Origin: a virus
Lineage: Duplodnaviria > Heunggongvirae > Uroviricota > Caudoviricetes
Direction: 5' to 3' (one strand)
Length of the DNA: 9,234 bases
IMG/VR virus record: IMGVR_UViG_2534681773_000016
Location: 1-9,234 of that record
Part shown: piece after piece, positions 1-9,234 of the stretch
Layout of the letters: each line of letters begins with the position of its first letter
Position numbering within the stretch: the first letter of the stretch is position 1
The notes under the pieces: generated by a model
Databases searched by the model: none
What the model was told of the DNA's origin: nothing
Seen by the model: the letters and a program-made list of their open reading frames with translations, nothing else
Program-made: the position numbers and the translations under genes

Positions 1-1839
1 TATGATGTTGTCAGGGCGGCGTCGCCGTCAGACCTTGCGGAAAAGCTGACACACAAACTGAAAGAGGGCTGGCAGCCATACGGCGGACCGGTTGCCATTA
101 CGCCGTACACACTGATGCAGGCGGTGGCTATTGAAGGAGATCCACAGGTCGGCCCTTCATCTGAGCCGGACTGGTTCTACGTGGTTGTGCTTGCCGGACA
201 GTCCAACGGCATGGCCTACGGTGAAGGGCTTCCGTTACCGGATTCTTACGATGCTCCGGATCCGCGCATTAAACAGCTGGCGCGCCGCAGCACGGTAACT
301 CCGGGTGGAGAGAGTTGTACGTATAACGACATCATCCCGGCTGACCACTGTCTGCATGATGTGCAGGATATGAGTACGCTGAATCATCCGAAGGCAGACC
401 TGAGCAAAGGGCAGTACGGCTGTGTCGGCCAGGGCTTACATATTGCCAAAAAACTGCTCCCGTATATCCCGAATAACGCGGGGATCCTGCTGGTACCATG
501 CTGTCGTGGTGGTTCGGCATTCACCCAGGGCGCGGAGGGGACATTCAGTGCGGACGCGGGGGCCAGCCAGGATTCGGCGCGCTGGGGTGTGGGTAAACCG
601 TTATATCAGGACCTGATTGCGCGCACTAAAGCTGCATTACAGAAGAACCCGAAAAATGTGTTGCTGGCGGTGTGCTGGATGCAGGGAGAGTTTGACATGA
701 GCGCCGCCACCTACGCACAGCAACCTGCGCTGTTTACAGCCATGCTGAAGCAGTTTCGTGCTGACCTCACTGTGTTTAACGCGCAGTGTCATGGTGGCAG
801 TGCTGCAGATGTGCCGTGGATTTGTGGTGACACGACGTATTACTGGAAAAATACATACGCTACCCAGTACGACACCGTGTACGGCGGGTATAAAAACAGG
901 GAGAGTGAGGGCGTTTATTTTGTGCCCTTCATGGCAGACGGTAACGGCGTCAATACCGCCACTAACGCGCCGGCAGAAGATCCGGATATTCCGGCATCAG
1001 GATATTACGGTGCGGCATCGAGAACGAATGGAAACCAGGTATCATCAAACCGCCCGACACATTTCAGTTCATGGGCGCGCAGGAGCATTATTCCGGATCG
1101 TCTGGCAACCGCTATTCTGAACGCAGCCGGGCGCACCTCAGCCTTCATCAGTGGTAAGGCACCGGAAATCAAACCCTCGCCCGGCGGCAACACGCCATCG
1201 GGTCCGTCTGCAGATACGTCCGTTCGCACAATCTCCCTGCTGCCGGCAGCCGGAGAGGCTGCTGCGCAGGGCTGGAGCATTAAGGATGGCGGAATTCAGT
1301 TGTCAGATGGTGTATTTAAGATCACCAAGCAGAGCAATAAAACCTGGTCCCTGACGCATCCGGTGGATGACGCAATTACCCTGCTGACACAGGGCGGCAG
1401 ACTGACCTGTAAGTTCCGCCTGTCAGGCGCACTGACCAACAATCAGTTCGGGCTGGGGATTTATCTGTATACGGATGCTCCCGTTCCTGATGGTGTGGCG
1501 ATGACGGGTACCGGTAATCCGTTCCTGATGTCGTACTTCACTCAGACCACTGACGGCAGAGTGAATCTGATGCATCACAGGAAAGCCGGAAACACGAAGC
1601 TGGGGGAGTTCGGCGATTACGGTAACGACTGGCAGACGCTGGAGCTGGTGTTCACCGCCGGCAGTGCCACGGTTACTCCGAAACTGAATGGAGTGGCTGG
1701 CCCGGCATTCCAGGTTATAAAAGACGGTCTGACACTGGGACTGAATGCGCTGACGCTGACGGATGTTACCAAAAATGCAGCGTATGGCGTTGAGATAGAA
1801 AGTCTGGTGCTGGAGATAAATGCACCGGCATCATCATAA
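1..1839 (+). CDS. nanS-p: Prophage sialate O-acetylesterase, NanS-p-like (DUF1737-like N-terminal segment + SASA/SGNH esterase + C-terminal domain); 5' end lies upstream of the window
   Basis: Frame 1 is open from base 1 to TAA at 1837-1839; the ORF track starts at M115 only because the true start is outside the window. Residues 1-40 (YDVVRAASPSDLAEKLTHKLKEGWQPYGGPVAITPYTLMQ) look like the DUF1737 segment. The GQSNGMAYGEG block at ~aa 66-76 is the SASA-family (GQSN) variant of the SGNH active-site motif. Position immediately upstream of the holin matches NanS-p genes of Stx/lambdoid prophages. Confidence 0.8.
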   Translation, partial: YDVVRAASPSDLAEKLTHKLKEGWQPYGGPVAITPYTLMQAVAIEGDPQVGPSSEPDWFYVVVLAGQSNGMAYGEGLPLPDSYDAPDPRIKQLARRSTVTPGGESCTYNDIIPADHCLHDVQDMSTLNHPKADLSKGQYGCVGQGLHIAKKLLPYIPNNAGILLVPCCRGGSAFTQGAEGTFSADAGASQDSARWGVGKPLYQDLIARTKAALQKNPKNVLLAVCWMQGEFDMSAATYAQQPALFTAMLKQFRADLTVFNAQCHGGSAADVPWICGDTTYYWKNTYATQYDTVYGGYKNRESEGVYFVPFMADGNGVNTATNAPAEDPDIPASGYYGAASRTNGNQVSSNRPTHFSSWARRSIIPDRLATAILNAAGRTSAFISGKAPEIKPSPGGNTPSGPSADTSVRTISLLPAAGEAAAQGWSIKDGGIQLSDGVFKITKQSNKTWSLTHPVDDAITLLTQGGRLTCKFRLSGALTNNQFGLGIYLYTDAPVPDGVAMTGTGNPFLMSYFTQTTDGRVNLMHHRKAGNTKLGEFGDYGNDWQTLELVFTAGSATVTPKLNGVAGPAFQVIKDGLTLGLNALTLTDVTKNAAYGVEIESLVLEINAPASS

Positions 1840-1924
1840 AAAGTGAGCCAGTCAAATGGAAGGTATCGTTAAACTCACCGGTAGTGTCAGTGGGTCGTCT
1901 GAGATGCCTGCATGAGTTATCAGA

Positions 1925-1954
1925 GCCATCAGTACTTAACTGGTGGCTTTTTTT
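1925..1954 (+). terminator. Rho-independent terminator between nanS-p and the holin
   Basis: 8-bp stem 1925-1932 (GCCATCAG) pairing with 1940-1947 (CTGGTGGC), one G-U pair, 7-nt loop, followed by T7 at 1948-1954. Confidence 0.7.
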
Positions 1955-1989
1955 ATTGTTGTCAGCTTCCGGATAACGGGAGACGGGGT

Positions 1990-2205
1990 ATGTACCAGAT
2001 GGAAAAAATCACAACAGGTGTGTCATACACCACGTCAGCGGTGGGAACGGGCTACTGGTTCCTGCAGTTGCTGGACAGGGTTTCCCCGTCTCAGTGGGCG
2101 GCAATAGGCGTGCTGGGGAGTCTGCTGTTTGGGCTGCTGACATATCTGACTAACCTGTATTTCAAAATCAGAGAGGACCGTCGTAAGGCTGCACGGGGAG
2201 AGTAA
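1990..2205 (+). CDS. S: Class II pinholin, phage 21 S21-like, with dual-start motif (Met1 at 1990, Met4 at 1999)
   Basis: 71 aa, [71 protein letters not shown]. Two TMDs and a charged C-terminus, near-identical in pattern to S21 68/71 as I remember it. GGGAGACGGGG SD-like element sits upstream of ATG 1990. The ORF-track start at 1912 is rejected because it precedes the terminator and lacks an RBS. Confidence 0.9.
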
Positions 2206-2209
2206 TTCA

Positions 2210-2524
2210 ATGACTCAAAACTATGAACTGATTGTGAAAGGGATCCGCAATTTTGAGAATAAAGTTACGGTAACTTTAGCGTTACGGGACAAAAAACGCT
2301 TTGACGGTGAAATTTTTGACCTGGACATCTCGCTGGACCGTGTTGAAGGTGCCGCGCTGGAGTTTTATGAGGCAGCAGCCAGAAGGAGCATCAGACAGGT
2401 CTTCCTGGATGTTGCTGCCGGGTTATGTGAAGAGGACGAGCTGTTGCCAGAAACGCGCCCCTGTTCAGAGGCGCGGAATACCATAAAAATTAACAGTTCT
2501 GATAACTCGATTACGTGTTGTTAG
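2210..2524 (+). CDS. Small conserved prophage protein between holin and endolysin (YdfR / DUF1327-like, from memory)
   Basis: 104-aa ORF starting 5 nt after the holin stop, with GGAGAG SD 9 nt upstream. N-terminal half (MTQNYELIVKGIRNFENKVTVTLALRDKKRFDGEIFDLD...) resembles the small ORF found at this position in E. coli Qin-type lysis cassettes. Family assignment is unverified. Confidence 0.65.
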   Translation: MTQNYELIVKGIRNFENKVTVTLALRDKKRFDGEIFDLDISLDRVEGAALEFYEAAARRSIRQVFLDVAAGLCEEDELLPETRPCSEARNTIKINSSDNSITCC

Positions 2525-2579
2525 CTTTTTGCAGTTGGCTTTCCAGTATCTTTCATTGGTAGCATCCTGATAAATATCC

Positions 2580-3113
2580 ATGAGCGCAAAAATCAAATAC
2601 GGCCTGTCAGCTGCTGTTCTGGCGCTGATTGCTGCAGGCGCGTCTGCTCCTCAGATACTTGACCAGTTTCTGGACGAAAAAGAGGGTAACCACACAACGG
2701 CATACCGCGATGGTTCCGGCATCTGGACCATCTGTCGGGGGGCCACGATGGTGGATGGAAAACCCGTTTTTCCCGGTATGAAACTGTCGAAGGAAAAATG
2801 CGACCAGGTCAACGCCATTGAGCGTGATAAGGCGCTGGCATGGGTGGAGAAAAACATCAAAGTGCCATTGAGCGAACCCCAGAAAGCGGGGATCGCGTCA
2901 TTCTGTCCGTACAACATTGGTCCCGGTAAGTGTTTCCCGTCGACGTTTTATAAACGAATTAATGCAGGTGATCGCAGGGGAGCGTGTGAGGCGATTCGCT
3001 GGTGGATTAAGGACGGTGGCAGAGACTGCCGTATTCGTTCAAACAACTGCTACGGTCAGGTATCCCGTCGTGACCAGGAGAGCGCGCTGGCGTGCTGGGG
3101 TATCGACAGATAA
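2580..3113 (+). CDS. R: SAR (signal-anchor-release) endolysin, T4-lysozyme-like (GH24), R21/P1 Lyz type
   Basis: 177 aa. N-terminal Gly/Ala/Ser-rich weakly hydrophobic SAR domain (GLSAAVLALIAAGASA) followed by the catalytic E...D...T spacing (DEKEGNHTTAYRDGSGIWTICRGAT). Pairing with a pinholin is the expected arrangement. Confidence 0.9.
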   Translation: MSAKIKYGLSAAVLALIAAGASAPQILDQFLDEKEGNHTTAYRDGSGIWTICRGATMVDGKPVFPGMKLSKEKCDQVNAIERDKALAWVEKNIKVPLSEPQKAGIASFCPYNIGPGKCFPSTFYKRINAGDRRGACEAIRWWIKDGGRDCRIRSNNCYGQVSRRDQESALACWGIDR

Positions 3114-3207
3114 GCAGAATATTTTGCTGAAAAATAAGGCATGGCCACGCGGGCGGATAACATGAAATCCTGCGAACTGGCGAAACGTAAGTGAATAAAA
3201 GTAAAAA

Positions 3208-3237
3208 CCCCGTTTGTTGGCACCAAGCGGGGGTTTT
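3208..3237 (+). terminator. Terminator-like hairpin in the R-Rz intergenic insertion
   Basis: 9-bp stem 3208-3216 pairing with 3224-3232 (one G-U), 7-nt loop, then T4 at 3234-3237. An A5 run at 3203-3207 upstream means it could act on either strand. The T-tract is short, so strength is moderate. Confidence 0.5.
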
Positions 3238-3273
3238 GTGTTTCCTGACTCCGGAAAAGTCAAAGGAGAAAGT

Positions 3274-3411
3274 GTGTTTGATTTTAGCAAACTGATTCGG
3301 GAGATTCGAGTGATGGCTGAAAAATTATCCACCTGGAAGTTCATTCTTATCTGGCTGGTGTTTGTGATTATGGCCTCCGGTTATTTCATCGGTCAGATAC
3401 GCTGGTGGTGA
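3274..3411 (+). CDS. Small single-TMD membrane protein of unknown function, inserted between endolysin and Rz
   Basis: GTG start at 3274 preceded by AAGGAG (3263-3268) with a 5-nt spacer. 45 aa with one hydrophobic helix ([22 protein letters not shown]). Stop TGA 3409-3411 lies 1 nt before the Rz ATG at 3413, suggesting translational coupling. An alternative start at ATG 3313 would give 32 aa. Confidence 0.55.
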
Positions 3412-3412
3412 A

Positions 3413-3880
3413 ATGAACCGCGTACTGTGCGTGGTCATCATTGCCCTGCTGGTGGCCTGTGGTGCGCTTAGTCTGGGGCTGAATCATTACCGTGATAACG
3501 CCATTACCTACAAAGCCCAGCGCGACAAAAATGTCAGAGAACTGAAGCTGGCGAACGCGGCAATTACTGACATGCAGATGCGTCAGCGTGATGTTGCTGC
3601 GCTCGATGCAAAATACACGAAGGAGTTAGCTGATGCGAAAGCTGAAAATGATGCTCTTCGTCGCAAGCTTGATAATGGTGGCAGGGTGCTCGTCAAAGGA
3701 AAATGCCCTGTGCCATCCTCAGCCGAAACCTCCAGCGCCTCCGGCATGGGCAATGATGCCACCGTCGAACTCTCTCCAGTTGCTGGACGAAACGTTCTCG
3801 GTATCCGGGACGGAATTATCCGCGACCAAACAGCACTGAGAACGCTTCAGGAATACATCAGGACGCAATGCCTTCGATGA
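3413..3880 (+). CDS. Rz: Rz i-spanin (inner-membrane spanin subunit)
   Basis: 155 aa with N-terminal TMD. Central segment [59 protein letters not shown] is essentially lambda Rz as I remember it; both termini differ. Confidence 0.9.
3633..3839 (+). CDS. Rz1: Rz1 o-spanin lipoprotein, embedded in the +1 frame of Rz
   Basis: 68 aa. Signal peptide with lipobox MVAGC, followed by a proline-rich stretch ([17 protein letters not shown]). Lies wholly inside Rz in another frame, the canonical embedded-spanin arrangement. Confidence 0.85.
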
Positions 3881-4054
3881 TAGCGATAATTTTACTCATC
3901 ATCCTTCACATCTGGCTCTGTAGACAGGGTGGTGATCACTTCTGGAGTGAATCCAGATTTAACATCTCATTGCTGATGCTTGATATTGAGCATCTTGCGC
4001 GCGGTAAGGAGCTGCGTTGAGATAAGAGCCAGTCATCACAAACACCAGGATTTA

Positions 4055-4077
4055 GCCTCGCATTCGCGGGGCTTTTT
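4055..4077 (+). terminator. Rho-independent terminator downstream of Rz/Rz1
   Basis: 7-bp stem 4055-4061 (GCCTCGC) pairing with 4066-4072 (GCGGGGC), one G-U, 4-nt loop ATTC, then T5 at 4073-4077. Confidence 0.65.
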
Positions 4078-4098
4078 ATTGCAACAAAGGTAAAGACG

Positions 4099-4386
4099 AT
4101 GGATGAAGAATATCGTAAAGACCTGCAATTGTGGTTTGGCCTGACGCATGCGTCGTTCTGCGTGATGCCGAGAGTATTCATGGAGGCTATGCCGCAAGAA
4201 TGGCAAGAGAAGATGGCGCAGTTGCTTTTTGAGTATGGCGACACGATCAAAACGGATGTCTGCGGAGTTCACAGCTGTTTCGTTACTGCCAAAGACGGCA
4301 ACAACCGCTTTATGAGGATGCCAGAAGATATTCTGAACTATCGTCATCCCCGGCGTGAGTTCATCGAATCATTTCTGAAGAAGTAG
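4099..4386 (+). CDS. Hypothetical protein (moron ORF A), family not recognised
   Basis: 95-aa ORF with ATG start and weak AAGG SD. Codon usage looks enterobacterial (CTG, GCG, CCG). Contains a His/Cys cluster (H17, C21, C65, H68, C70). Sits 21 nt after the terminator. Confidence 0.55.
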   Translation: MDEEYRKDLQLWFGLTHASFCVMPRVFMEAMPQEWQEKMAQLLFEYGDTIKTDVCGVHSCFVTAKDGNNRFMRMPEDILNYRHPRREFIESFLKK

Positions 4387-4479
4387 CCATTACAAAGTCT
4401 ATCTGCGGGGGGCTTGATAAAGGTGCTTTCACCTCGCTTAGCATGGTATGTTCTGACTACCAACTTTTTGGGAGGACAC

Positions 4480-4704
4480 ATGGAACTGATAAATGGACGG
4501 CCAGGCAGAGATTTTATAGTGGGAACATATACCTACTCAGAAATTAAAGATCTTAACTTCATGGCTAAGGAAGAGAAAAGAGCTCGTGAAGAGCTAAAGC
4601 ATCGGGGTTACGAATTGGCGTATATCAAGGCGGACTCTGAATGTAACGGGATGTTTGTCAGGGCGTACCGGGTCTATACTGACAAAGCGCCATCTAATGT
4701 CTAA
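4480..4704 (+). CDS. Hypothetical small protein (moron ORF B), family not recognised
   Basis: 74-aa ORF from ATG 4480 with GGGAGGA SD at 4470-4476. Highly charged (KEEKRAREELKHR). The ORF-track start at 4414 is a TTG without RBS and is rejected. GC about 44% by hand count. Confidence 0.55.
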   Translation: MELINGRPGRDFIVGTYTYSEIKDLNFMAKEEKRAREELKHRGYELAYIKADSECNGMFVRAYRVYTDKAPSNV

Positions 4705-4751
4705 ATATACCTCGGGCGGTTTTTTACGTTCATTACCGTACGCAATTACAG

Positions 4752-4779
4752 CAGGCATTCATTGAGTGCCTGTGATAAT
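4752..4779 (+). promoter_or_regulatory. Candidate extended -10 promoter overlapped by an inverted repeat, upstream of moron ORF C
   Basis: TGtGATAAT at 4771-4779 is an extended -10-like element. Inverted repeat CAGGCA (4752-57) / TGCCTG (4767-72) with a 9-nt spacer overlaps the -35-equivalent region, which is itself poor (GCAGGC). No experimental support. Confidence 0.3.
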
Positions 4780-4839
4780 GATTTATCAACGTGCTTGCAA
4801 ACGGTATTCTAGACCTCCAATTATCCTAAGGAGGTTTTT

Positions 4840-5244
4840 GTGGTTAAAAATTTAGAATACATGAAGGGGATGCTTGAGGTATTTTTGAAAGCGAAAACTC
4901 CCTTTATATCTACAAAAGACTTAGCTAATGCGGGGTACGATATCTGCTCGAATGAAGGGATGTTTCATTATCTACTTCTTATTGAGCAAGGTTATATCAG
5001 TAATAAAGATCTAATAACGGATGACATAACTAAACTGGGCTACATGCGCCATTGTGGCCATATGCTAGATATGGGTACCGACGTGCGACTATCTGCGCAG
5101 GGACAAGAATTCGCCCAGGCATTAAATGAACCTACGGTTTTTGAGAAATTAAAGTCAATGAGCGATGCCCCTTTGAGTACAATCAAAGATGTTGGGCTGG
5201 AGTTAACGAAGGCCTATTTAAAGAAGAAATTTGGCCTCGAGTAA
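4840..5244 (+). CDS. Hypothetical protein (moron ORF C), low GC; possibly a winged-helix-type small protein (DUF2513-like is a guess)
   Basis: 134-aa ORF from GTG 4840, preceded by the strongest SD in the window (AAGGAGG 4828-4834, 5-nt spacer). GC about 40% by hand count over 4801-5280, versus 50% or more in terminase and esterase genes. Confidence 0.6.
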   Translation: MVKNLEYMKGMLEVFLKAKTPFISTKDLANAGYDICSNEGMFHYLLLIEQGYISNKDLITDDITKLGYMRHCGHMLDMGTDVRLSAQGQEFAQALNEPTVFEKLKSMSDAPLSTIKDVGLELTKAYLKKKFGLE

Positions 5245-5304
5245 AATTTCTACCCTCACGAGTTAAGTTGTTTTGTGATGGTTATTCGCAATGAATATCT
5301 CTAG

Positions 5305-5331
5305 CCACTGGCATTTGCTGGTGGTTTTTTT
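5305..5331 (+). terminator. Rho-independent terminator closing the moron cassette, upstream of cos
   Basis: 8-bp stem 5305-5312 (CCACTGGC) pairing with 5317-5324 (GCTGGTGG), two G-U pairs, 4-nt loop, then T7 at 5325-5331. Confidence 0.55.
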
Positions 5332-5456
5332 ATGCGCATCCCTCGCGCACCACAAAGGGAGTCTTTCAGTAGTGATTCTGAATATCAGTGTGATAAACGT
5401 ATTTGACAATCATTATCATTTTTGGTGGGTCCTTTCCGGCGATCCGACAGGTTACG

Positions 5457-5468
5457 GGGCGGCGACCT
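5457..5468. other. cosN: cosN cohesive-end site (12-nt sequence GGGCGGCGACCT), with a lambda-like cosQ-side flank upstream
   Basis: 5424-5502 reads GGTGGGTCCTTTCCGGcGATCCGACAGGTTACG / GGGCGGCGACCT / CGCGGGTTTTCGCTATTTATGAAAATTTTCCGG. From memory this matches the lambda right end plus the first ~46 nt of the lambda left end with one mismatch. It sits ~185 bp upstream of the small terminase gene, as in lambda. Confidence 0.85.
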
Positions 5469-5505
5469 CGCGGGTTTTCGCTATTTATGAAAATTTTCCG
5501 GGATC

Positions 5506-5604
5506 CATGTCCGGTTTCTCTGCAAGTTAACTATATGAAAAATATAAAAACAGGCTGTCCGTGAACCGGACATGTGCAAAAAACGGACATGTAAACCGGA
5601 CATG
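5506..5604. repeat. cosB: cosB-like region: four copies of a 9-mer (CCGGACATG) flanking an AT-rich tract; candidate small-terminase binding sites
   Basis: CATGTCCGG at 5506-5514 (inverted) and CCGGACATG at 5566-5574, aCGGACATG at 5583-5591, CCGGACATG at 5596-5604 (direct). AT-rich tract AAAAATATAAAAA at 5539-5551 lies between them, analogous to the lambda R3-I1-R2-R1 layout but with a different repeat sequence. Additional inverted repeat AACCGG(n6)CCGGTT at 5594-5611. Confidence 0.6.
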
Positions 5605-5651
5605 ACCGGTTTTGTGCTGATTGTGAGGTAAGAGTTTTTGCGAGGTGAGGA

Positions 5652-6161
5652 GTGGCTACGCAGACTGAAGTTGCCAGGCATTTGAGTCTGACCGATCGCC
5701 AGCTTCGCAGATTGCAGAAATTACCGGGTGCCCCGGTCTCGAATAAGCGAGGGCAACTGGATCTGGATGCCTGGCGCGATTTTTACATATCGTATCTGAG
5801 AAGAAGTAAAAACGATGTGCCTGATGGCGATAGCGAAGAAGACTATGAAGAGAAATTGCTTATTGCCAGATGGGAACTGACAGCAGAACAGGCTGTTACA
5901 CAGCAGTTAAAAAATGAGGTGTCAAAAGGAAAACTGATTGACACCGGGTTCTGTATTTTTGCCCTCAGTAAGCTGGCAATGGCGTTATCCAGTACGCTTG
6001 ATTCCATCCCTTTATCCATGCAGCGACAGTTTCCTGATTTAACACCGCGCCATCTTGACCATCTGAAAACCCTTATTGCTAAGGGGGCAAATCAGTGTGC
6101 GCGGGCAGGGGATAAATTACCGGATTTACTTGATGAATATATCAGAGCAACAACTGAATAA
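5652..6161 (+). CDS. Terminase small subunit (lambda gpNu1 family)
   Basis: 169 aa from GTG start with GAGGTGAGGA SD. C-terminal two thirds align to lambda Nu1 from memory (TGFCIFALSKLAMALSSTLDSIPLSMQRQFPDLTPRHLDHLK vs TAFCTFVLSRIAGEIASILDGLPLSVQRRFPELENRHVDFLK). The N-terminal HTH region is divergent. Confidence 0.9.
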   Translation: MATQTEVARHLSLTDRQLRRLQKLPGAPVSNKRGQLDLDAWRDFYISYLRRSKNDVPDGDSEEDYEEKLLIARWELTAEQAVTQQLKNEVSKGKLIDTGFCIFALSKLAMALSSTLDSIPLSMQRQFPDLTPRHLDHLKTLIAKGANQCARAGDKLPDLLDEYIRATTE

Positions 6162-8060
6162 TATGATGAGCGCTGTCACAACTGCATTACAGCCCCTGAT
6201 AAGGGCATTGCCGGTGACGCCAGTTGAATGGGCTGATCAAAATTATTATCTGCCTAAAGAATCTTCATATGGTGAGGGCGAATGGAAAACGCTGCCATTC
6301 CAGATCGCCATCATGAACAGCATGGGGAATGATCAGATCCGCACTGTTAATCTGATTAAATCTGCCCGTGTTGGCTATACAAAGATGTTGCTGGGGGTGG
6401 TCGGGTATTTTATTGAGCATAAATCCCGAAACAGTCTGCTTTTTCAGCCCACGGATTCTGCCGCTGAAGATTTTATGAAGTCTCACGTGGAGGCGACGAT
6501 TCGGAACGTGCCATGCCTGAAAGACCTTTCCCCATGGCTGGGTCGTAAACATCGTGACAATACTCTCACGCTGAAACGCTTTTCATCGGGCGTCGGTTTC
6601 TGGTGCCTGGGCGGCGCTGCCGCCAAAAACTACCGTGAAAAATCCGTGGACGTGGTCTGTTATGACGAGCTTTCCTCGTTCGAACCGGATGTTGAAAAAG
6701 AGGGTTCGCCAACCCTGCTGGGGGATAAACGTATTGAGGGCTCTGTATGGCCAAAATCCATTCGCGGCTCGACGCCTAAAATCAAAGGCTCCTGCCAGAT
6801 CGAAAAAGCCGCTAACGAGTCGGCACACTTCATGCGTTTTTATGTGCCCTGTCCGCACTGTGGGGAGGAGCAGTATCTGAAATTTGGCGATGATGCCTCG
6901 CCTTTCGGTCTTAAGTGGGAGAAGAATAAGCCAGAAAGTGTTTTCTACCTTTGTGAGCATCATGGCTGTGTGATCCATCAGTCTGAGCTTGACCAGAGTA
7001 ACGGGCGGTGGATCTGTGAAAACACGGGCATGTGGACCCGTGACGGCCTGATGTTTTTCAGCGCCCGGGGTGATGAAATTCCGCCGCCGCGCTCCATCAC
7101 TTTCCATATCTGGACGGCGTACAGTCCGTTCACCACCTGGGTACAGATTGTCTATGACTGGCTGGATGCACTGAAAGATCCCAACGGCCTGAAAACCTTT
7201 GTGAACACCACGCTGGGCGAGACCTGGGAAGAGGCCGTGGGCGAAAAACTCGATCACCAGGTGCTGATGGATAAGGTTGTGCGTTACACGGCGGCGGTGC
7301 CTGCCCGGGTGGTTTATCTGACGGCGGGCATTGACTCGCAGCGAAACCGTTTTGAGATGTATGTCTGGGGATGGGCTCCGGGAGAGGAAGCCTTTCTGGT
7401 GGATAAAATCATCATTATGGGGCGTCCCGATGAGGAAGAGACGCTGTTACGTGTGGATGCGGCGATCAACAAAAAATACCGCCATGCAGACGGAACCGAA
7501 ATGACCATTTCCCGTGTCTGCTGGGACATCGGGGGGATCGATGGCGAAATCGTTATCAGAGGTCAAAAAAACACGGTGTTTTCCGGGTGCTGCCGGTAAA
7601 AGGCGCATCTGTCTATGGCAAGCCGGTGATCACCATGCCAAAAACCCGCAATCAGCGGGGCGTGTATCTGTGTGAAGTGGGGACGGACACCGCAAAAGAA
7701 ATTCTCTATGCCCGTATGAAAGCCGATCCCACGCCTGTGGATGAAGCCACGTCGTATGCCATCCGTTTTCCTGATGATCCGGAGATTTTTTCGCAGACAG
7801 AGGCGCAGCAACTGGTCGCGGAAGAGCTTGTGGAGAAGTGGGAAAAAGGAAAGATGCGTCTGCTGTGGGATAACAAAAAGCGGCGTAACGAAGCGCTGGA
7901 CTGCCTGGTGTATGCCTACGCGGCATTACGTGTGTCCGTGCAACGCTGGCAGCTTGATCTGGCTGTACTGGCAAAATCCCGGGAAGAAGAGACGACCCGG
8001 CCAACCCTGAAAGAACTGGCAGCGAAGCTGTCCGGAGGAGTGAATGGTTACAGTCGCTGA
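6133..8060 (+). pseudogene. Terminase large subunit (lambda gpA family) interrupted by a 1-nt frameshift (frame 1 to frame 3) near 7555-7572
   Basis: Frame 1 from ATG 6133 (MNISEQQ..., overlapping the Nu1 end as in lambda) carries Walker A KSARVGYTK and aligns to gpA up to ...CWDIGGIDGEIVI, then hits TAA at 7597-7599. Homology continues in frame 3 (RSKKHGVFRVLPVKGASVYGKPV ... to TGA 8058-8060). Combined length is about 642 aa versus 641 for lambda gpA. The true start is ATG 6133, not the ORF-track start at 6076. Confidence 0.75.
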
Positions 8061-8250
8061 ACTGCAGGCGCTGCGTCAGGCGCGCCTTGATTTATTAACC
8101 GGTAAACGGGTGGTGTCTGACCAGAAAGATGGTCGCAGAATTGAATATACGGCGGCTTCTCTGGATGAGCTTAACCGGGCGATCAATGATGCGGAGTCGG
8201 TACTGGGGACAACCCGGTGTCGCCGTCGTCCGCTGGGAGTGAGATTATGA
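8044..8250 (+). CDS. W: Head-tail joining / head completion protein, lambda gpW family
   Basis: 68 aa. LTGKRVVSDQKDGRRIEYTAASLDEL matches lambda gpW [26 protein letters not shown]. Start overlaps the end of the terminase frame-3 segment. Confidence 0.85.
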   Translation: MVTVAELQALRQARLDLLTGKRVVSDQKDGRRIEYTAASLDELNRAINDAESVLGTTRCRRRPLGVRL

Positions 8251-9234
8251 AACGAACGCCTGTCCTGATTGATGTGAACGGCGTTCCGCTTCGTGAGAGT
8301 CTCAGCTACAACGGGGGCGGTGCAGGATTTGGCGGGCAAATGGCTGAGTGGTTGCCACCGGCGCAGAGTGTCGATGCGGCCCTGCTGCCCGCGTTGCGTC
8401 TGGGGAATGCCCGGGCAGATGATCTGGTGCGCAATAACGGAATAGCGGCTAATGCGGTGGCCCTGCATAAGGATCACATTGTCGGGCATATGTTTCTGAT
8501 CAGCTACCGTCCGAACTGGCGCTGGCTGGGGATGCGGGAGACCGCAGCAAAAAGCTTTGTCGATGAGGTGGAGGCGGCCTGGTCGGAATACGCCGAAGGG
8601 ATGTCTGGCGAGATCGACGTGGAAGGAAAACGCACGTTCACGGAATTTATCCGTGAAGGTGTGGGCGTTCATGCGTTTAACGGCGAAATCTTTGTGCAGC
8701 CGGTCTGGGATACGGAAGCCACGCAGTTATTCCGTACGCGTTTTAAAGCCGTGAGTCCGAAACGGGTGGACACGCCTGGACACGGTATGGGGAACCGTTT
8801 TCTGCGGGCCGGTGTGGAGGTCGATCGATATGGCCGTGCCGTCGCGTACCATATCTGTGAGGATGATTTTCCGCGCTCCGGGAGTGGACGATGGGAACGG
8901 ATCCCGCGTGAACTTCCCACCGGGCGTCCGGCCATGCTGCATATTTTCGAGCCGGTGGAGGACGGGCAGACCCGTGGGGCTAATCAGTTTTACAGCGTCA
9001 TGGAACGGCTGAAGATGCTCGATTCCCTGCAGGCAACACAGCTTCAGTCGGCCATAGTGAAAGCCATGTATGCAGCGACGATTGAAAGTGAACTTGATAC
9101 CGAAAAGGCCTTTGAATATATCGCCGGCGCGCCACAGGAGCAGAAGGATAATCCGCTTATTAATATTCTGGAGAAGTTCTCCAGCTGGTATGACACGAAT
9201 AACGTGACACTGGCGGTGTCAAAATTCCGCACCT
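8247..9234 (+). CDS. B: Portal protein, lambda gpB family; 3' end lies beyond the window
   Basis: Frame 3 is open from ATG 8247 (ATGA overlap with the W stop; GGAG SD) to the window end. Absent from the ORF track because no stop occurs in the window. Translation MKRTPVLIDVNGVPLRESLSYNGGGAGFGGQ ... HIFEPVEDGQTRGANQFYSVMERLKMLDSLQATQLQSAIVKAMYAATIESELDT aligns closely with lambda gpB. Confidence 0.9.
   Translation, partial: MKRTPVLIDVNGVPLRESLSYNGGGAGFGGQMAEWLPPAQSVDAALLPALRLGNARADDLVRNNGIAANAVALHKDHIVGHMFLISYRPNWRWLGMRETAAKSFVDEVEAAWSEYAEGMSGEIDVEGKRTFTEFIREGVGVHAFNGEIFVQPVWDTEATQLFRTRFKAVSPKRVDTPGHGMGNRFLRAGVEVDRYGRAVAYHICEDDFPRSGSGRWERIPRELPTGRPAMLHIFEPVEDGQTRGANQFYSVMERLKMLDSLQATQLQSAIVKAMYAATIESELDTEKAFEYIAGAPQEQKDNPLINILEKFSSWYDTNNVTLAVSKFRT

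Follow-up and report, generated by a model that had tools for sequence, protein, structure and literature searches.

The window, that is the whole 9,234-nucleotide stretch analysed here (positions 1–9,234 of IMG/VR virus record IMGVR_UViG_2534681773_000016), carries at 5427–5651 what is, judged from its sequence, the lambda-like cos site of a lambdoid prophage, followed at 5652 by the gene of a small terminase subunit (TerS). In this site the cutting module of lambda has very probably been kept, whereas cosB, at which the terminase would dock, appears to be built on an element with the core TCCGGTT and to work by the same mechanism as in lambda. The evidence comes from the repeats at the R3 and R2 positions of cosB, which are deeply conserved, and from an N-terminal TerS domain which lies outside the Nu1 model and recurs with the same recognition core in phages of other genera. 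Throughout the text, bp 1 denotes window position 5457, the first base of the cohesive end.

Subsites of the cos region and their conservation

The subsites recognized in the window are as follows.

5427–5433, plus strand: cosQ-like heptamer GGGTCCT, 24–30 bp left of the cohesive end
5457–5468, plus strand: cosN cohesive-end 12-mer GGGCGGCGACCT, identical to lambda and phage 21
5469–5501, plus strand: right flank of cosN (bp 13–45), identical to lambda
5506–5517, plus strand: R3-like element CATGTCCGGTTT (bp 50–61), with the conserved core ATGTCCGGTT at 5507–5516 (bp 51–60)
5528–5540, minus strand: I1-like candidate site for integration host factor (IHF), TTTCATATAGTTA (bp 72–84), within an AT-rich tract
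5564–5574, minus strand: R2-like element AACCGGACATG (bp 108–118), inverted relative to R3
5581–5592, minus strand: degenerate middle copy AAACGGACATGT (bp 125–136)
5593–5612, both strands: R1-region near-palindrome AAACCGGACATGACCGGTTT of 20 bp (bp 137–156)

The heptamer GGGTCCT is identical to that annotated as cosQ in the phage 21 record and is found at the same offset in lambda; it is invariant in alignment A6, in which the window is aligned with a second lineage (loci L242–L246), and among 31 distant relatives its conservation is about 90%. All but two of the 30 bases left of the cohesive end, cosQ included, match lambda, and bp 1–45 match it fully with the identity gone from bp 46, which bears out the lambda-identical cosN and flanks and the divergence from about +45 noted in a preliminary description of this DNA. 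Nicking would thus be expected at GGGCGGCGACCT. The homology to lambda stops directly after TTTTCCGG (5496–5501), where lambda goes on with TT and thereby has a lone TCCGGTT at bp 40–46; recombination may have taken place at the TTCCGG that both have in common.

To the right of this point, the 9-mer CCGGACATG occurs in three exact copies (5506–5514 on the minus strand, 5566–5574 and 5596–5604 on the plus strand), which are the only ones in the 9.2-kb window and all lie inside 100 bp, versus a mean of 0.11 in 200 shuffles counted across the same window, none of which reached three. The preliminary description had counted four copies; ACGGACATG at 5583–5591 matches the 9-mer only at 8 of 9 positions, and a fifth copy in the R3 orientation, CATGACCGG at 5601–5609, which overlaps 5596–5604, had been overlooked. 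The repeat unit is longer than the 9-mer, being 11–12 nt, CATGTCCGGTT(T), and an AT-rich tract at approximately 5518–5555 separates the first copy from the remaining ones; IHF would bind at TTTCATATAGTTA within it. The lambda core CGTTTCC is found nowhere in the window cosB. The near-palindrome AAACCGGACATGACCGGTTT consists of an inverted copy (5593–5604) and an overlapping R3-oriented copy CATGACCGGTTT (5601–5612, bp 145–156) that matches R3 at 11 of 12 positions; its place is close to that of R1 in lambda and 21, whose cores start at bp 155. Because R1 shares the orientation of R3 in both of these phages, the plus-strand copy at 5601–5612 is the best R1 equivalent, not the third 'direct' copy.

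Conservation was evaluated in close relatives (78 instances, 42 distinct sequences, TerS 98–99% identical, the isolated PhiR12 phages included), of which 40 distinct sequences were scored and two rearranged loci were set aside, and in the second lineage. The preliminary description would have been undermined by absence of the 9-mer repeats from related cos sites; they were present and conserved in the PhiR12 phages, in the 40 distinct close relatives and in L242–L246. Among the close relatives, the R3-position element (bp 50–61) did not vary at all, the R2-position 11-mer showed only rare variants, the core of the palindrome was conserved, and the spacers varied; minor alleles had a mean frequency in the motifs that was one fifth of that elsewhere. 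The middle copy, which reads ATAGACACT in the PhiR12 phages, was the most variable stretch (7 of 12 columns vary), and L242–L246 lack it; it is probably not a functional site.

In L242–L246, TerS is 57% identical to that of the window overall and 73% in the N-terminal domain, two of the loci carry the N15-type cohesive end GGGCGGCGTCCG, and cosB has diverged almost everywhere except in three invariant blocks whose coordinates are unchanged: ATGTCCGGTT at bp 51–60, TAA-N5-TGAAAA at bp 72–85 and AACCGGACATG at bp 108–118. The IHF-like TAA-N5-TGAAAA, for which L242 and L245 are one mismatch off the consensus when read by eye, is therefore flanked by ATGTCCGGTT and AACCGGACATG in both enterobacterial lineages. 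The R1 region is lineage-specific, partly kept in L242 and not conserved in L245 and L246, which holds for CATGACCGGTTT as well. Judging from these alignments, deep conservation is confined to two repeats, those at the positions of R3 and R2, so that the R3-I1-R2-R1 layout proposed earlier holds at these two positions, whereas its middle copy is variable and its R1 is better placed on the overlooked copy.

Two close relatives depart from this picture locally. In L031 (bp 133–230 from cosN), R3, R2 and the inverted third copy are kept and the R3-oriented half of the palindrome has been replaced; in L018, the interval from the palindrome to the ribosome-binding site is shortened by a small deletion.

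The small terminase and its proposed recognition core

The terminase genes following the cos site, and the parts into which TerS divides, are listed below.

5652–6161, plus strand: TerS, 169 aa, GTG start, with a Shine-Dalgarno-like GAGGTGAGGA at 5642–5651
5652–5816: TerS residues 1–55, a non-Nu1 putative DNA-binding domain
TerS residues ~61–169: Nu1-like part for oligomerisation and binding of the large terminase (TerL), assigned by likeness
6133–8060, plus strand: gpA-family large terminase, with Pfam GpA_ATPase and a truncated GpA_nuclease, overlapping the TerS gene

The TerS reading frame matches PHROG terminase small subunit families, and its counterpart in PhiR12_1 is annotated as Nu1. 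The Pfam model Phage_Nu1 (PF07471) was matched with 67.4 bits against a cut-off of 30, in which only residues 61–150 align to model positions 73–163 and the N-terminal half of the model is left unmatched; tblastn against lambda Nu1 aligned residues 73–164 only, at 46% identity. These results agree with the earlier reading of a Nu1-like protein with a divergent N-terminus and a lambda-like C-terminal region. For residues 1–55 there was no Pfam match and no significant lambda match, and the corresponding domain of a Pseudomonas relative, as well as that of lambda Nu1, gave sub-threshold matches to Pfam HTH_17 and MerR.

An AlphaFold model of residues 1–58 (predicted local distance difference test, pLDDT, of 87.6) has a topology of strand, helix 4–10, helix 15–22, loop or wing, and helix 38–52. 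Its top Foldseek matches were all MerR-like winged helices: RacA, RdfS, gpNu1 (1J9I, template-modelling (TM) score 0.54), RppC (6hlk, TM score 0.66 normalised to the query, E = 1.2) and MerR regulators. The model is consistent with a MerR-like winged-helix fold of the TerS N-terminus, and we read the domain as being of the same kind as those of Nu1 and N15, too diverged, or replaced, for a call of homology. Modelling of full-length TerS gave a poor result (pLDDT 62.9) and an uninformative fold search, and a sequence search against the PDB gave nothing relevant for TerS. Both models were built from single sequences because the homologue searches gave no deep alignment: word-indexed searches with the N-terminal 80 residues or with the domain alignment returned almost solely truncated Escherichia coli copies and no diversity. 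A scan of IMG/VR with the domain alignment was likewise dominated by E. coli copies and was rerun with distant sequences only.

The N-terminal domain family (MATQxEvAxHLxLs-RQ...) was found in Pseudomonas phage LPPA33, in the Aeromonas phages phiARM81ld, PhAER-2 and PCAh2, and at 65 IMG/VR loci; a 2465-aa match with 19 'domains' (P0041) was dismissed as a spurious, repetitive low-complexity prediction. The distant relatives comprise 51 distinct upstream regions; 31 non-redundant sites were used for block conservation. TCCGGTT is present in 48 of the 51, typically as a tandem TTCCGGTTCCGG(TT), and with a single exception it precedes the start of TerS by 15–28 nt, which corresponds to bp 55–68 from the cohesive end. 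In phiARM81ld, whose record starts at the cohesive end, the element occupies bp 55–68; TCCGGTT of the window is at bp 54–60, within 2 bp of the TTCCGGTTCCGG of the distant relatives and at the R3 position. In the 31 non-redundant sites, the TTCCGGTTCCGG block equals the cosQ-like and the cosN-like block in conservation. It is TCCGGTT, not CCGGACATG, that forms the recognition core across genera, and in the window it takes the form ATGTCCGGTT.

In relatives of the Pseudomonas/Aeromonas type, cosB is simple, its R3 lying just upstream of TerS. In addition, such relatives (L177–L239, L093 and L006) carry a remote inverted copy of R3 at TerS nucleotide +175 (approximately bp 255), which changes together with the R3 of the same site, as in the following cases.

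L231: R3 TTCCGC; remote copy GCGGAA, entailing a change from Pro to Ala
L227: R3 CCGTGTCCG; inverted remote copy matching all 9 bases
phiARM81ld (L093): R3 CATTTCCGGTTC; remote copy at bp 250–262, matching at 12 of 12 positions

A hybrid TerS was found in two prophages of E. albertii and Escherichia sp. (L009 and L010, 1201–1935). It is 97% identical to the window TerS over residues 101–169, 60% over residues 56–100 and 20% over residues 1–55; its N-terminus is of N15/Monarch type, and the accompanying cosB carries repeats GGTTGTTGT at bp 51 (plus), 110 (minus) and 188 (plus). In this hybrid the domain was thus exchanged along with the repeats, with cosN and the TerL-binding end left unchanged. 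The swapping of TerS recognition domains has been anticipated by the packaging field (PMC4669245), and L009/L010 and the window make a natural example of it in lambda-like phages.

The scan of genome contigs yielded only four loci. Two of them, L007 and L008 (one Shigella flexneri and one E. coli genome), are interrupted by an insertion sequence and lack cos: at approximately 517–1500 of these loci, its transposase (a 313-aa reading frame) replaces cos and the first ~67 TerS codons, and in both loci residues 68–169 alone remain of TerS.

Residue 20 of TerS (5709–5711), in the recognition helix, is Arg where the site reads GTCCGGTT (window, L242 and L227), and Asn, Thr, Glu or Asp where it reads TTCCGGTT (TTCCGG). 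This residue may be a determinant of specificity, the correlation being drawn from only two independent lineages.

Proposed mechanism, alternatives and setting of the window copy

In the mechanism that we propose by analogy with lambda and regard as likely, a TerS dimer would bind, through its N-terminal winged helices, the R3-like element (bp 50–61) and the inverted R2-like element (bp 108–118), which an IHF-type bend at the AT-rich tract would bring together, and the palindromic R1 region would probably add affinity. The lambda-like C-terminal part of TerS would then hold the gpA-type large terminase over cosN, leading to lambda-type 12-nt cohesive ends. Packaging by such a system should be of separate specificity with lambda-compatible ends.

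We lean slightly towards a further generalization, in which the window represents a fourth specificity class among cos phages of the lambda-like kind, whose hallmark would be a TerS domain, winged-helix and of 'MATQ type', that reads (T/G)TCCGGTT. This class would be spread over Enterobacteria, Pseudomonas, Aeromonas and uncultured phages, in complex and simple forms, possibly with a code at residue 20 (Arg for GTCCGG; Asn, Thr, Glu or Asp for TTCCGG).

Several observations weigh against the proposed mechanism. The function of this cosB class is deduced from analogy and conservation. Every Foldseek E-value was at least 0.4, a weak assignment of fold, and hhalign of the domain family against the Nu1/N15 domains gave a collinear alignment of 42 columns with P = 0.003 and a probability of only 10%. 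The candidate IHF site of the window is two mismatches off the consensus WATCAANNNNTTR, as is I1 of lambda (bp 74–86). The lone TCCGGTT of lambda means that the 7-mer by itself is not diagnostic. Among the close relatives, the comparison of variable columns between motif and non-motif positions gave P of approximately 0.07–0.12, a statistic which is weak because these sequences are too similar. Lastly, the large terminase of the window is frameshifted, so that self-packaging may be beyond this copy: one T present in PhiR12_1 and L011 is missing near 7555 (7550–7560, a short T run) inside the nuclease domain, tblastn splits the protein between frame 1 (aa 1–484) and frame 3 (aa 475–642), and the reading frame is broken in the window whereas relatives have an intact gene of 642 codons. 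The 1-bp deletion is either prophage decay or a sequencing error.

The alternative that survives best starts from this deletion. The cos site would belong to the proposed class but be a dead relic in the window, working only with the terminase of a co-resident prophage of the same class, or never. Complementation in trans is plausible given a median of 2 and up to 4 cosB copies per genome; on the other hand, none of the cos subsites is damaged, three other loci have the identical region, and a single-base deletion in a short T run could have arisen in sequencing. We regard a dead relic as possible, though the less probable state, and it bears on the activity of the window copy and not on the identity of the element.

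Far less probably, the repeats are operators for a regulator of late genes or of the host, or parts of a terminator or attenuator, with TerS docking elsewhere. Weak terminator-like hairpins do overlap them (5498–5514 on the plus strand, 5572–5556 on the minus strand), but their stems are just 5–6 bp long and no Rfam family matches the window, and against a regulatory role the repeats stand exactly where three other cos classes have R3 and R2 and change along with the N-terminal domain of TerS.

Marginally less probable still is a phage 21-type cosB, in which CATGTCCGG would be a variant of the 21 core CATGTCGG and be read by a 21-like terminase. The annotated R sites of 21, TTTCATGTCGGACCTT and TTTCATGTCGGGCCTT, share CATGTC-GG with the window repeat. 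The TerS N-terminus, however, has no detectable similarity to gp1 of 21 (22% in a forced alignment, with tblastn aligning residues 64–166 only), and the window core has an extra C and lies 3 bp nearer to cosN than that of 21, where a spacing tolerance of only 1–2 bp between cosN and R3 has been reported (PMC4669245). Because the domains are unrelated in sequence, the two cores differ in position by 3 bp, and TTCCGG but not CATG is kept where the same domain occurs in distant relatives, we treat the likeness to the 21 core as coincidence or convergence. A chance cluster of repeats in a divergent spacer, for which one could cite that with one mismatch allowed the window has 6 copies against a shuffle mean of 2.4 (5 of 200 shuffles reach 6), is in practice refuted by the shuffle counts of the exact 9-mer, its confinement to 100 bp and its retention across lineages while the flanks diverge.

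The lambda-like cutting module with a cosB built on the TCCGGTT core is followed in the window by packaging genes and preceded by lysis genes. The features on the left are as follows.

115–1839: large protein of unknown function (phrog_143), preceding the lysis genes
1912–2205: holin
2580–3113: endolysin
3413–3880: Rz-like spanin
3868–5244: small open reading frames of unknown function

The 115–1839 reading frame is annotated 'DUF6645' or 'SASA family carbohydrate esterase' in relatives and aligns from profile position 45, so the true start may differ from its first ATG, or its N-terminus may have been shortened. Between the last reading frame (4840–5244) and cosQ, a terminator-like hairpin at 5303–5336 (10-pair stem, 4-nt loop and a T run) lies within variable sequence that borders the cos module upstream. 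On the other side, relatives have genes for a head-tail joining protein and a portal after the large terminase gene. Similarity to PhiR12_1 (95.8%) begins at 5404 and extends to the window end, and most database matches begin at 5404 too; the cos region thus opens a conserved packaging and head module, as had been suggested, with the boundary not exactly at cos but at roughly 5404, 23 bp left of cosQ.

This type of cos occurs in the isolated phages PhiR12_1 to PhiR12_5, whose records list E. coli K-12 or C as host; these records are not cos-terminated and virion ends are not mapped in the database. The cosB segment 5503–5660 matches 1168 of 5426 complete E. coli genomes, including O157:H7 and the enteropathogenic E. 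coli (EPEC) strain E2348/69, with a median of 2 and a maximum of 4 copies; genomes of O55:H7 and O104:H4 match larger queries. As the class is present in roughly one in five complete E. coli genomes, often in several copies, it could, if real, decide which co-resident prophages package one another. More generally, packaging specificity sets which DNA a terminase loads, and hence which defective prophages, plasmids and islands are mobilised by which helper, and with the recognition element known, sequence alone is enough to assign prophages to cross-packaging groups. The searchable full-text literature held neither a description of nor an experiment on this cosB class, and nothing describing the PhiR12 phages, its coverage of subscription journals being thin so that an earlier description is possible; the class is apparently uncharacterised but common, and extends the lambda/21/N15 paradigm without a new principle.

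Comparison with known packaging specificities

The coordinates of the R elements in the window and in the known systems are compared below (bp from the cohesive end, strand in brackets).

lambda: core CGTTTCC; R3 at 53 (plus), R2 at 114 (minus), R1 at 155 (plus)
phage 21: core TGTCGG; R3 at 55 (plus), R2 at 112 (minus), R1 at 155 (plus)
Monarch type: core GGTTGTTGT; R3 at 51 (plus), R2 at 110 (minus), R1 at 188 (plus)
window: core GTCCGGTT; R3 at 53 (plus, to bp 60), R2 at 108 (minus, to bp 115)
window, R1 region: GACCGGTT at 148 (plus), with a further inverted GTCCGGTT at 138

With lambda, the window shares the cosQ heptamer, the cohesive end and bp 1–45, a gpA-family large terminase, and R3-like, inverted R2-like and candidate IHF sites at comparable positions, the centre-to-centre distance of R3 and R2 being approximately 57 bp in the window and 56 bp in lambda as counted by hand. 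The TerS gene starts at bp 196 in the window and at bp 191 in lambda, and the C-terminal region of the window TerS is 45% identical to Nu1. In vitro, TerS of lambda binds DNA weakly and without specificity (PMC6739421). In contrast, the repeat is ATGTCCGGTT in the window and CGTTTCC(T/G)TTCT in lambda, TerS residues 1–55 fall outside the Pfam Nu1 model, and the window has an extra degenerate copy and, in place of R1, a palindrome of two overlapping copies.

Phage 21 sets the precedent of shared cosQ and cosN with differing R sequences and recognition helix, and its R core CATGTCGG resembles CATGTCCGG of the window. Unlike the window domain, that of 21 gp1 is a close homologue of Nu1, and the R cores of 21 (L003) are at bp 53–60, 110–117 and 153–160, whereas the window core occupies bp 50–58, with one extra C and an offset of 3 bp.

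In N15 and Monarch, one specificity is combined with a simple or a complex cosB (PMC4669245). The family of the window is split in the same way, since the E. coli type is complex (R3-I1-R2 plus an R1 region) and the Pseudomonas/Aeromonas type is simple, and the remote inverted copy about 200 bp from R3 inside the TerS gene of the simple relatives resembles the rR2 site of N15 at bp 249–260 (PMC4669245). The recognition sequence is nevertheless TTCCGG/GTCCGG in the window family and GGTTGTTGTT in N15/Monarch, and the domains are of different sequence: the window lacks both R sites of GGTTGTTGTT type and an N-terminus like that of N15 gp1, whereas L009/L010 have the two, and the Monarch-type TerS of E. 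albertii shares only its C-terminal two thirds with the window TerS.

In phage-inducible chromosomal islands (PICIs), the cos sites are read by Rpp-TerS heterodimers, and a single R3 has been proposed for them (PMC6739421, PMC9026076). A lambda-like cosQ and cosN with a non-lambda cosB are common to PICIs and the window, and the Rpp winged helix (6hlk) is among the best structural matches of the TerS domain. A PICI cos site was rejected, since the window has a complete TerS-TerL-portal packaging module downstream, no rpp gene and a complex cosB.

Since lambda, 21 and N15/Monarch each have other repeats and another binding domain, the window, as far as its sequence can tell, belongs to none of these specificities. 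The distinct packaging specificity anticipated in the preliminary description, in the manner of lambda versus 21, is accordingly supported by comparison, not by experiment.

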